From the NCBI GenBank assembly GCA_031291955.1, contig JARLIA010000005.1, positions 141,224 through 205,223 of the forward strand: DNA of 64,000 bases, in the 5' to 3' direction. Position 1 is the first letter of the stretch. The number at the start of each line of letters is the position of its first letter. This stretch comes from Minisyncoccota bacterium (GTDB lineage: Bacteria > Patescibacteriota > Minisyncoccia > Moranbacterales > UBA2206). Position numbers and translations under genes: made by a program. Of the stretch, positions 39,479 to 41,593 are shown piece after piece. Under the pieces are notes generated by a model. The model was not told where the DNA came from and made no database searches. It was given only the letters and a program-made list of their open reading frames with translations.

Positions 39479-41593
39479 ATGAACAAAAACCAAGCCAAAA
39501 TAAGAATAGAAAAACTTTCGGCGGAGATTTCGAAGCGCCGCTATGAATACCATGTGCTGGACAAGCCGGACGTAACCGACGAGATTTATGATTCGCTCAT
39601 GAAGGAACTGCGGGAATTGGAGGAACAATATCCGGACTTGCGCGCGCCTGATTCGCCATTGCGGCGAATCGGCGGAAAGCCCTTGGATAAATTCCAGAAA
39701 GTCCGTCATCAGGTCAGACAATGGTCGTTTGACGATGTTTTCAGCTGGGAAGAATTGGTGAAATGGGAAGAGAAGGTGAAGAGAATGGCGGAAAAAAATT
39801 CAAAATTCAAAATTCAAAATTTGAAACTCGAGTATGTTTGTGAGATGAAGATTGACGGACTCAAAATGGTTTTGACTTACGAAAATGGGATTTTGGTCCG
39901 GGCGGCTACCAGAGGCGACGGAGTGATCGGCGAAGACGTGACGGAAAATGTCAAAACGATTCATTCTGTGCCGCTGAAATTGAATCACTCGGTCAATTGC
40001 GTGGCAGTGGGTGAATGTTGGCTGTCCAAATCGGAATTGGAAAGAATAAATAAAGAACGAAAGACACGAAACGAAGCGCAATTTGCCAATTCCCGGAATG
40101 CGGCGGCCGGATCGATCCGGCAACTTGATCCCAAAGTGGCGGCCGGGAGAAAATTGGACGCGTTTATCTATGATTTGGATTATTTGGAAATTCCAAATAA
40201 TAAAAGCGAAATTTCAAACGTTAAAATACCGAAAACTCAATTGGAAGAATTGGATCTGTTGAAATTATTAGGTTTTAATGTTAATGAAAATCATCGTCTT
40301 TGCGAAAATATCGAAGAGATTCAGGAGTTTTATGATGCATGGAAAGACAAGAAAGACAACGAGGATTATGGCATAGATGGCGTTGTGATCAAGATAAATT
40401 CGGTAGAAATTCAGGAGGCGTTGGGCTATACCGGCAAATCCCCGCGCTGGGGCGTGGCCTACAAATTTCCGGCTGAAAAAGTGACGACGGTGGTTGAAGA
40501 TATCAAAGTCCAGGTCGGACGAACGGGAGCGCTGACGCCAGTGGCCCATCTCCGGCCGGTTTTGGTGGCCGGTTCCACCGTTTCGCGCGCCACACTTCAC
40601 AATGAAGATGAGATAAGAAGACTCGGGCTAAAAATCGGCGACACGGTGGTCATTCAAAAGGCGGGGGATGTCATTCCGGAAGTGGTGGAGGTTTTGAAGA
40701 ACTTAAGGAGCGGCAATGAAAAAGAATTCCGGATGCCAAAAATCTGTCCGATTTGCGGCGGATCAGCGGCGAGAAAAGAAGGTGAAGCGGCGACGTATTG
40801 TTTGAATCCCAAGTGCTACGCCGTGGAACGGGAAAAGATGATCCATTTCGTTTCCAAAAAAGGTTTCAATATCGACGGACTGGGAGAAAAAATCGTTGAA
40901 CAATTAATGAATGAAGGATTGATAACGACGGTGGCTGATATTTTTGAACTCAAAGCCGGCGACTTGGAACCGCTGGAGCGGTTTGCCGAAAAATCAGCCG
41001 ACAATTTGGTGATCTCCATCGAAGTCGGAAAAGTTATCGAACTGCCGAAATTCTTGTTCGCGCTCGGTATTCGGTTTGTTGGTGAAGAAACAGCTGTTTT
41101 AATCGCTAGGGCGATTAACGCGGAATTTTCAATTTTCAATTTTCGCTTGGAAAACAAATCTCAATTTTCAATTTCCAATTTTACAAAAATATTTCCCAAA
41201 ATAAAAATTGAAGATTGGAAAAATATAAAAGGCATCGGGGAAAAATCGGCTGAGAGCTTGGTTGAATGGTTTGGCGATGGAGATAATTTGAAACTATTGG
41301 AAAAGATGCGGGAACTGGGCGTCCGGGTGATTATGCCAGATGCCAAATACGAGATATCAAATACCAAGCTGGCTGGCAAGACTTTCGTTCTGACCGGGGA
41401 GTTGGCGTCCTTTACAAGAGACGAAGCAAAAGATATGATTAGAAAAGCAGGGGGGGACGTTTCTTCGTCCGTCAGCCGAAAAACTAGCTATGTAGTGGCC
41501 GGCGACAATCCTGGCTCGAAATATGAAAAGGCGAAGGAGTTGGGAGTGAAAGTGATTGAGGAAGAAGAGTTTAAGAAGATTTTGGGAGATTAG
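39479..41593 (+). CDS. ligA: NAD-dependent DNA ligase LigA with two in-frame repeat-derived insertions
   Basis: Adenylation motif KIDGLKM, zinc finger CPICGG...C, HhH and BRCT domains. Two insertions are encoded by AAAATTC/AATTTTC heptamer repeats, at 39801-39835 (SKFKIQNLK) and 41112-41225 ([31 protein letters not shown]). Confidence 0.9.

Follow-up and report, generated by a model that had tools for sequence, protein, structure and literature searches.

A heptamer-repeat insert in ligA of a patescibacterial genome and its likely relation to an intergenic palindromic element

The gene for NAD-dependent DNA ligase, ligA, carries a 60-nt insert of tandem heptamers in a Minisyncoccota bacterium belonging to the Candidate Phyla Radiation (CPR, or Patescibacteria). 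It was found in a 64,000-nucleotide stretch of contig JARLIA010000005.1, here called the window. The insert stands in frame and appears to be related to a family of imperfect palindromes with heptamer arms that occupies the spacers between genes, both in this window and in many other CPR genomes. The explanation that we favor, with a probability of roughly 0.7, is that the insert is a derivative of half an element, tolerated as a passenger in a surface loop of LigA, and that its arrays evolve in concert.

The insert in ligA

The gene, the parts of the insert and a neighboring segment that was formerly read as part of it are as follows.

39479-41593, + strand: ligA, NAD-dependent DNA ligase, 704 amino acids (open reading frame list; E. 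coli LigA 2owo, E 1e-162; Pfam)
41123-41182, + strand: insert, probably from half an element, 60 nt, residues 549-568; same layout in L001, L002, L119 and L120
41124-41144, + strand: array A, three perfect AATTTTC units (Tandem Repeats Finder, 100% matches; direct reading)
41145-41162, + strand: middle segment GCTTGGAAAACAAATCTC, with the AAACAA punctuation of the element arm; single occurrence in the window
41163-41183, + strand: array B, imperfect, AATTTTC AATTTCC AATTTTA (Tandem Repeats Finder, which reports the array as 41161-41182)
41198-41224, + strand: native LigA codons KIKIEDWKN, formerly read as an inverted arm; aligned with insert-free orthologs

The initial annotation had described AATTTTC heptamers inside ligA that leave the frame intact, and Tandem Repeats Finder, direct reading and shuffled sequences all bear this out. 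Arrays A and B, and a shorter array nearer the start of the gene (site 1, below), are in frame. Period-7 arrays occur in the window far above chance. The 12-mer AATTTTCAATTT, with at most one mismatch, was found 36 times where 3.9 occurrences are expected, a number equaled in 0 of 100 shuffles, and a scan for self-similarity at a lag of 7 gave 11 regions, compared with 0-2 at lags of 4, 5, 8, 10 and 11. Among 66 long open reading frames (ORFs), which cover 88% of the window, heptamer arrays are present only in ligA and in one doubtful ORF of 96 amino acids; all others fall between genes.

One 60-nt layout, consisting of four heptamer slots, an 11-nt AAAYAA punctuation and three heptamers, is shared by all inserts of the window's type, in which 44 residues separate the third and fourth helix-hairpin-helix (HhH) motifs. 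Three of them are written here in units; L numbers denote loci fetched from other genomes.

Window: G AATTTTC AATTTTC AATTTTC GCTTGGA AAACAAATCTC AATTTTC AATTTCC AATTTT
L120: G AATTTTC AATTTTT AATTTTA AATTTTC AAACAATTTTC AATTCTC AATTTCT AATTTT
L002: G AATTTCC x4 AAATAATTTCC AATTTTC AATTTCC AATCTT

In the window GCTTGGA, a part of the middle segment, stands in the fourth heptamer slot. The middle segment is 100% conserved in L001, and its counterpart in L120 is AATTTTC AAACAATTTTC. Array B is nearly unchanged in L001 (one base different), L002 and L119. The array unit varies with lineage: AATTTTC in the window, L001 and L119, AATTTCC in L002, AAATTCC in L003 and AAATTTC in L128.

A hidden Markov model (HMM) of the element was built from 83 copies, all in other genomes. 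In the window it found five full elements (E 1e-13 to 1e-22), and its next best match was ligA at 41125-41219 (16.3 bits, E 2.9e-4). When these 105 nt were shuffled 1000 times with their dinucleotides preserved, the score of the real sequence (16.7 bits) was never reached, the maximum being 11.9, and the similarity reported earlier is therefore significant against a composition-matched background. In the alignment the + strand of ligA is matched to the reverse complement of the right arm, with three ATTTTCA units, the AAACAA punctuation and further units. An arm consists of three to four AATTTYN heptamers followed by AAACAATTTC; ligA has three perfect units, AAACAA and three units more. The insert at the HhH site is always the top match in the insert-bearing ligA genes of relatives, that of L002 reaching 26.1 bits over model positions 2-68 of 117, the left half, and the insert-free ligA genes of L121, L122 and L123 gave no match to the element model. 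The L120 insert carries the arm together with the exact, non-repetitive AAACAATTT punctuation. These comparisons support a relationship with the intergenic elements that goes beyond base composition. A simple copying of the ligA unit from the intergenic unit of the same genome found no support, since the unit in L003 is AAATTCC in ligA and AATTTCT/AATTTTC in the spacers. The flanks of L002, L118 and L119 contained no perfect AATTTYC-type arrays.

A complete element could not be read as protein. All five full elements of the window are interrupted by one or more stop codons in each of the six frames. Within the arrays, AATTTCT gives TAA in every frame, GAAAATT gives TGA and AGAAATT gives TAG; AATTTCT is closed on both strands, AATTTTC is open in the + orientation only, and both orientations are open for AATTTCC and AAATTCC. 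Exactly the stop-free units, in the stop-free orientation, make up the arrays of ligA, and an inverted arm would bring TGA in every frame. Because the full element is untranslatable, only a stop-free half would be readable in ligA. An inverted arm had nonetheless been reported inside the gene. The candidate, 41198-41224, is complementary by only 84-89% over 18-19 nt, and it encodes the native KIKIEDWKN, whose tryptophan, W580, is invariant in 106 sequences; the RNA fold of 41118-41225 is unremarkable (z -1.9). It was therefore rejected as the second arm of the element, TTGTTT(GAAAATT)n, and with it the view that a palindromic element is embedded whole. What ligA holds, inside an ORF and unlike the full elements in their spacers, is only about 60 nt, apparently one arm and the beginning of the loop, which amounts to roughly half of an element.

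The insert is located between the third and fourth HhH motifs, in the linker region to which it had first been assigned. By alignment with 2owo it falls at about E. coli residues 531-547, which we take to be within the HhH domain. Between the third HhH hairpin and the fourth (IKGIG) there are 24 residues in E. coli, 36 in about half of the 120 closest orthologs and 44 in the window; other orthologs have 50, the 14 residues beyond the 36 corresponding to 42 nt or six heptamers, and up to 71 where nested modules are present. The net gain in the window is 20 residues relative to E. coli and 8 relative to the 36-residue baseline of insert-free relatives, smaller than the insertion of about 38 residues first described. 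Alignment of orthologs does show it to be lineage-specific, as had been supposed: it is absent from about half of the 120 closest LigA orthologs, and the 60-nt insert is missing from L121, L122 and L123. On a rough neighbor-joining tree insert-bearing and insert-free LigA proteins are interleaved, which implies repeated gain or loss. The colonization of ligA is not a recent one, since positional homologs of the insert exist in LigA proteins that are just 70-82% identical.

Low-complexity repeats can mislead assemblers, and a repeat-induced mis-join, a collapsed repeat within ligA or an error of annotation could in principle create such a structure. The chance of this is negligible. The ORF is intact, with the full set of LigA domains recognized by Pfam (adenylation, OB, Zn, HhH and BRCT), and it aligns end to end with E. 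coli LigA. The insert is found at the same codon in independent assemblies of other samples (L001, L002, L119 and L120), and because the independent assembly L001 carries it, it is not an assembly artefact.

In an AlphaFold2 model built with 106 orthologs (mean predicted local distance difference test score, pLDDT, 87), residues 549-563 are coil, and the block 551-560 has a pLDDT of 67, compared with 79-93 in the neighboring blocks. A short helix at 565-570 corresponds to the native helix of the insert-free proteins. The structure modeling that had been proposed thus returns predicted coil of lower confidence, which suggests a surface position compatible with the fold of the protein.

Two other loops of LigA are variable.

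39795-39821, + strand: site 1, array AAAATTC x3.9, encoding KNSKFKIQN, residues 106-114 (Tandem Repeats Finder, 100%)
40187-40231, + strand: site 3, third variable loop, residues 237-251; a 9-residue gap in E. coli

Site 1 lies 8 residues ahead of the KxDG adenylation motif, in a hot spot of variation among orthologs (residues 106-116). A smaller insertion near the adenylation domain had been annotated here, and the perfect in-frame array stands; its net gain is only 2 residues relative to most relatives, and its match to the element HMM is weak (E 0.16-0.44). The unit, AAAATTC, is one base from the right-arm unit of the element. In L001, with LigA 82% identical, site 1 (2140-2175) contains a perfect array of an unrelated unit, CAGAGAA x3-4, equal in total length to that of the window. 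It seems that entire arrays are exchanged and the length of the loop is retained. NSKFKIQN recurs at site 1 in distant orthologs. At site 3 many orthologs have heptamer-type peptides; in the window the periodicity at lag 7 falls short of significance there (P 0.07), and the sequence is possibly a decayed AAAnnnn array. Sites 1 and 3 coincide with dips in pLDDT, to 76 and 74.

If the favored explanation is correct, an ancestor of some Moranbacteria-like lineages would have gained a half-element in the LigA loop that joins HhH motifs three and four, either by a transposition-like insertion or by ectopic conversion from copies between genes. Its translation would have been possible only through stop-free variants (AATTTTC, AATTTCC) in the one stop-free orientation; the other arm, with TGA or TAG in all three frames, is absent from ligA. 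The product would be a 20-residue loop rich in Phe, Asn, Ser and Ile, tolerated by the ligase as a passenger and presumably neutral for its function. The arrays would then evolve in concert, uniform in their units within a gene and different between lineages, and those of relatives would accept further nested GC-hairpin modules.

The element between genes and its traces in other genes

The copies of the element in the window, to which no strand is assigned, are listed here.

41907-42027: full element in the gatC-gatA spacer (HMM E 2e-20; 42-nt arms, 79% complementary; hairpin z -5.0)
44336-44448: full element between two tRNA genes, 44253-44326 and 44456-44529 (HMM E 1.6e-13)
46248-46391: full element with a nested GC-rich double hairpin at about 46270-46303 (HMM E 1.1e-20; fold -49.8 kcal/mol, z -9.8)
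51397-51522: full element (HMM E 1.4e-22; 36-nt arms, 83% complementary)
51954-52072: full element (HMM E 6.8e-17)
47339-47369: short element copy

The elements of the window are imperfect palindromes of 110-145 nt, in a family with a length of about 110-125 nt. Their arms are tandem heptamers on the general plan (AATTTCT/AATTTTC)n AAACAATTTC ... TTGTTT(GAAAATT)n; in the window copies a left arm (AATTTCT/AATTTTC)3-4 AAACAATTTCCAAT is followed by a variable loop and a right arm AATTGTTT(GAAAATT)3-4. Fold z-scores of -3.2 to -9.8 were obtained for three of the five full copies. The element at 41907-42027 begins on the last base of the gatC stop codon and finishes 5 nt upstream of the gatA ATG, and L003 has the same element in the same spacer. 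That at 44336-44448 is placed exactly between the second and third of the three tRNA genes of the window, all of which lie within 44165-44529.

One exact 24-mer of the arm was present in more than 114 loci of a collection of species-representative genomes. Record titles among the matches listed include Moran-, Harrison-, Kuenen-, Yanofsky-, Curtiss- and Doudnabacteria, Absconditabacterales, 'Saccharibacteria' and others, with a few non-CPR labels. Exact 24-38-mers are common to intergenic copies across phylum-level lineages. In the fetched loci the HMM identified 110 full-length copies, not one of them inside an ORF, and 70 of the 75 that could be classified lie between co-directional genes. 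An element starts 0-2 nt past the upstream stop codon, or overlaps it, and ends about 9-10 nt ahead of the next start codon; 38 copies are oriented with the direction of the genes and 32 opposite to it. No Shine-Dalgarno-like sequence was seen between element and start codon in the window copies, and terminator-like sites were not enriched at the intergenic elements. Arrays of the type (TTGAAAA)4 give promoter-like matches, TTGAAA-17-GAAAAT, which are hints at the level of a consensus only. Around the five window copies no consistent target-site duplication was found by eye, the boundaries being fuzzy since the arms are themselves repeats. Rfam had no family matching the elements and found only the three tRNAs, and literature searches, including searches with literal sequence strings, returned no description of these elements in CPR bacteria. 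Carriage by phages was considered and rejected: the arm 24-mer has no exact match among 2.9 million viral contigs.

Two other repeats were noted. At 44939-45061 there is a palindrome with 60-nt arms, 70% complementary, built of period-7 units TTTGAnn, possibly a further family of elements. The ORF at 44632-44976 has its 3' end within the left arm, which thus encodes the C-terminal tail. At 30818-30893, upstream of the ORF at 30922, an intergenic array of period 7-8 units (TACGAAA/AATACGAA) gives way to GAAATTN units.

Small GC-rich hairpins are nested in the heptamer arrays of some LigA genes, though the ligA insert of the window has none. In L119 a 21-nt hairpin, CCTGCCTCGCCGGTAGGCGGG, interrupts the array, and its removal restores a perfect (AATTTTC)4. 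The L118 array contains CCGCCTGAGGCGGATCAGCCTTTGGCGGAC, a module that is also found in an intergenic element of L112 and at window positions 37880-37900; there it reads CGGATCAGCCTTTGGCTGA and lies upstream of the ORF at 37931, beside a period-7 array of AAAAAGT/AAAAATG. The LigA gene of P0078 has this module in frame too (ADQPLAD), and P0050 LigA includes a similar peptide, KADQPMAE. At site 3 of the P0014 LigA (L128), the module TTTTCTGGCTATGCCAGATCTGGCGAAGCCAG is in frame and matches the module at about 46270-46303 of the window element with about 90% identity; a compensatory change of CTCGC/GCGAG to CTGGC/GCCAG keeps the hairpin. Either composite elements enter the loops of ORFs, or GC modules insert into heptamer arrays in both settings.

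When long ORFs of the fetched CPR loci, 563 kb in all, were scanned, in-frame arrays came to light in other genes, identified by Pfam.

L044, UvrC: canonical arm in frame, RKISNFKFLISKQFP
L047, MurD-like ligase: in-frame repeat ILNFQFLISKQFPISNFQ
L108, O-antigen ligase (Wzy_C): left arm, loop and right arm; G-to-C changes there remove TGA
L042, class-V aminotransferase (nifS-like): GNWKLEIEN twice
L110, Nfo-like endonuclease: EKFKISNLKFKIHE, an array of the related AAATTTN type rather than the canonical arm
L011, LigA, zinc-finger region: AATTTCC x4, scoring 25 bits with the element HMM
L023, RNase HII: GGAACAT x4, an array of unrelated heptamers
L013, ribosomal protein S5: likewise an array of unrelated heptamers

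The canonical 24-mer AATTTCTAATTTCTAAACAATTTC is in frame in the UvrC, MurD-like and Wzy_C genes. Within the window the repeat is seen in ligA alone; in other CPR genomes arm copies are found in UvrC, MurD-like, Wzy_C, class-V aminotransferase and LigA genes. A search with the translated arm peptide against a database of 5.8 billion proteins returned only short spurious ORFs and did not recover the LigA proteins, and is uninformative on the frequency of in-frame copies.

The array might alternatively be a microsatellite of local origin, formed by slippage of an AT-rich heptamer in a permissive loop, its likeness to the element resulting from a shared mutational bias toward AATTTYC repeats. The units are indeed uniform within an array and different between lineages, those of site 1 have nothing in common between close relatives (AAAATTC for the window, CAGAGAA for L001), unrelated arrays exist elsewhere (GGAACAT in RNase HII, CAATCAA in another LigA), and the length classes of 36 and 50 residues differ by multiples of 21 nt. 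Slippage cannot, however, place the non-repetitive AAACAATTT punctuation where it stands in L120, nor does it explain the canonical 24-mer in three unrelated genes or an HMM match above every composition-matched shuffle. The nested modules shared with intergenic copies at about 90% identity are non-repetitive, and local slippage therefore cannot produce them. We consider this origin unlikely, and prefer descent from half an element.

It had also been proposed that gatA carries the same kind of insertion, at 43025-43063. This segment contains AGTTAGGGA x2 with a period of 8-9 and a different sequence, and was rejected as a heptamer element.

43032-43055, + strand: core of the gatA insert, TTAGGGAAGTTAGGGAGTTTGGGG (LGKLGSLG), a G-rich repeat of period 8-9

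The GatA of the window has 3-6 extra residues (SELGKLGSLGLEG) relative to five orthologs. The 24-mer TTAGGGAAGTTAGGGAGTTTGGGG is identical at 23 of 24 nt to the HhH-site insert NLGKLGSLGDII of the P0010 LigA (L122, 8237-8260), and a membrane protein of L127, on another contig, has it in frame as well. Because of these recurrences the gatA insert is assigned to a second, rarer family of in-frame repeats.

As to the setting, the LigA of the window is 100% identical to a protein from a metagenome-assembled genome at NCBI labelled Candidatus Pacebacteria, and its nearest relatives are labelled Moranbacteria. Orthologs with 56-82% identity range from 680 to 843 amino acids. Downstream of ligA are gatC (41608-41907) and gatA (42033-43514), and the order ligA-gatC-gatA is kept in all relatives fetched. 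Upstream of ligA, L002, L118, L119 and L121 have a cluster resembling type IV pilus genes, with T2SSE ATPases, T2SSF, a prepilin peptidase and N_methyl pseudopilins; pseudopilin-like ORFs at 37931-39375 suggest the same pilus neighborhood in the window, at about 26500-39400.

Conservation of the insert at the nucleotide level

The ligA genes of the window and L001 are 82% identical in protein and 80% in DNA, compared with 96-99% for the DNA of the insert; the peptide at residues 549-572 is 100% identical. Among the 31 unchanged residues of 549-581 a single codon differs, whereas the amino-acid-specific or codon-specific rates of synonymous change in the remaining ligA predict about 10 differences (P about 7e-5 or lower), codon bias being controlled for the window-L001 pair only. 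The same tendency was seen in five insert-bearing genes. In 10 of 10 pairs the insert has a higher nucleotide identity (0.77-0.98) than the remainder of the gene (0.66-0.79), and at third positions the respective values are 0.65-0.95 and 0.39-0.62. A segment of ligA that involves no repeat, residues 203-235 (window 40085-40183), has 2 of 33 codons synonymously changed relative to L001.

These results, together with several others, weigh against the interpretation that we favor. If the loop were a purely neutral passenger, it should change more rapidly than the rest of ligA, and the insert changes more slowly. Because synonymous change is suppressed and the insert is the more conserved in all 10 pairs, the description of it as a mere passenger is incomplete: a constraint at the level of DNA or RNA, or homogenization, acts on it. 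Conversion from intergenic copies was rejected as the cause, since the unique middle segment is also fully conserved. In addition, the HMM score of the window insert is modest, with much of it supplied by the heptamers, and the fourth slot (GCTTGGA) and middle segment have diverged from the element consensus. No signature of insertion, such as a target-site duplication, is visible at the ligA insert, and with a rough neighbor-joining tree the patchy distribution cannot separate many losses from many gains.

The constraint could reflect a cis-acting signal embedded in the gene, such as a site bound by the factor that would recognize the intergenic elements, or an RNA or antisense-promoter signal acting on the downstream gatCA, with the peptide as a by-product. 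This would account for the deficit of synonymous changes, which is robust to both kinds of rate, and for the third positions; the exact 24-38-mers that intergenic copies keep across phylum-level lineages and the promoter-like matches of the (TTGAAAA)4 arrays are in keeping with it. About half of the orthologs function without the insert, however, the ligA array is on the coding strand in the non-promoter orientation, and no significant RNA structure is predicted. Residues 203-235 show a similar conservation at synonymous sites without a repeat, and the control for codon bias extends to one pair only. On balance such a signal is rather improbable as the reason for the insert.

Selection might instead act on the peptide, if the loop rich in Phe, Asn, Ser and Ile had a role at the protein level, for example in contact with a partner or with DNA, that explains its retention. 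The perfect identity of residues 549-572 in an ortholog that is 82% identical overall would fit such a role, as would the presence of similar peptides (EFPISNFQFP...) at the same site in many lineages. Yet selection on the peptide leaves the conservation of synonymous sites unexplained, and the peptides vary as whole-unit changes in the DNA predict, from F/S/I to F/P/I/S when AATTTTC becomes AATTTCC. The region is low-confidence coil, and the same peptides occur in unrelated enzymes. A selected peptide module is thus very unlikely.

A half-element in a tolerant loop, under a constraint on its nucleotides, is the account that we retain. The constraint might have its origin in a wider system, and this idea is put forward as a tentative and somewhat doubtful extension. 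A conserved, sequence-specific palindromic heptamer element would punctuate CPR operons from stop to start codon across the superphylum, would be held almost unchanged between phylum-level lineages by a mobilizing or binding factor, and, along with nested GC-hairpin modules, would repeatedly give rise to new loops in such essential proteins as LigA, UvrC, MurD and NifS-like ones; the ligA insert would be one visible sign of it, and the copies within genes would be constrained as they are still recognized by the factor.

Comparison with known systems

Repetitive extragenic palindromic sequences (REPs) and the bacterial interspersed mosaic elements that contain them resemble the CPR element in that they are imperfect palindromes within operons, between co-directional genes and in either orientation; in the CPR copies, too, a target-site duplication was not apparent by eye. 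REPs differ in being about 35 nt long, GC-rich and not composed of tandem heptamers, and we know of no REPs that form in-frame insertions in proteins. The GC clusters of yeast mitochondria are small GC-rich hairpins nested in AT-rich spacers and are occasionally in frame in var1. They are a parallel to the GC modules nested in heptamer arrays, including those in LigA of relatives, but the organisms and sequences are different, and the window's ligA insert has no such module. Contingency loci also contain tandem heptamers within ORFs, where a change of one unit would shift the frame. In ligA there are three units per array in an essential gene, with no evidence of on/off variation in length; the number of units and the frame are the same in L001, at 82% identity, and the ORF is intact in all relatives. 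Because the arrays are too short and too stable, a phase-variable locus was rejected.

Transposable elements of the miniature inverted-repeat type (MITEs) such as ERIC, BOX, Correia and Nezha are likewise small, with inverted-repeat arms, many dispersed copies, no coding capacity for a transposase and occasional in-frame fusions with host ORFs (PMC10969869). The CPR element differs in that inspection of the five window copies by eye gave no evident target-site duplication and that no parent insertion sequence is known, and also in the unusual precision of its placement from stop to start codon and the exact 24-38-mers retained across very distant lineages. The ligA copy is without terminal inverted repeats or a target-site duplication of the MITE type.

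The closest parallel is that drawn by the initial annotation, with the Rickettsia palindromic elements (RPEs), which occupy numerous genes in frame, at sites that the fold of the protein allows (Ogata et al. 2000, as reviewed in PMC10969869). In both systems short palindromic repeat DNA is present between genes and, for the CPR element in the loci scanned, in frame in unrelated housekeeping genes, where it adds a peptide segment at fold-compatible positions, and in both the hosts are host-dependent bacteria with reduced genomes. The in-frame arm copies in other CPR housekeeping genes make the analogy an apt one. It fails with respect to what is inserted: RPEs enter whole, at about 100-150 bp, each with its own ORF, whereas a complete CPR element is unreadable in any frame and what the genes contain is one half, of 60 nt, or else a copy in which an arm is mutated. 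The CPR element differs further in its tandem-heptamer arms that appear to evolve in concert, and in its occurrence in many phylum-level lineages rather than in one genus. No kinship of sequence with RPEs is expected.

Repeat DNA that is read in frame within essential genes has so far counted as a curiosity, with Rickettsia as its best-known case. A partly analogous condition can now be described in CPR bacteria, a group for which no earlier description was found. What distinguishes the element is its regular position in operons, its conservation across phylum-level lineages and its entry into proteins only as a stop-free half. Such half-elements would explain part of the variation in length of CPR housekeeping proteins, a pitfall for gene callers and alignment-based phylogenies, and they offer a concrete source of new surface loops. 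They also point to a factor that keeps a 7-base repeat constant in intergenic and coding DNA alike.

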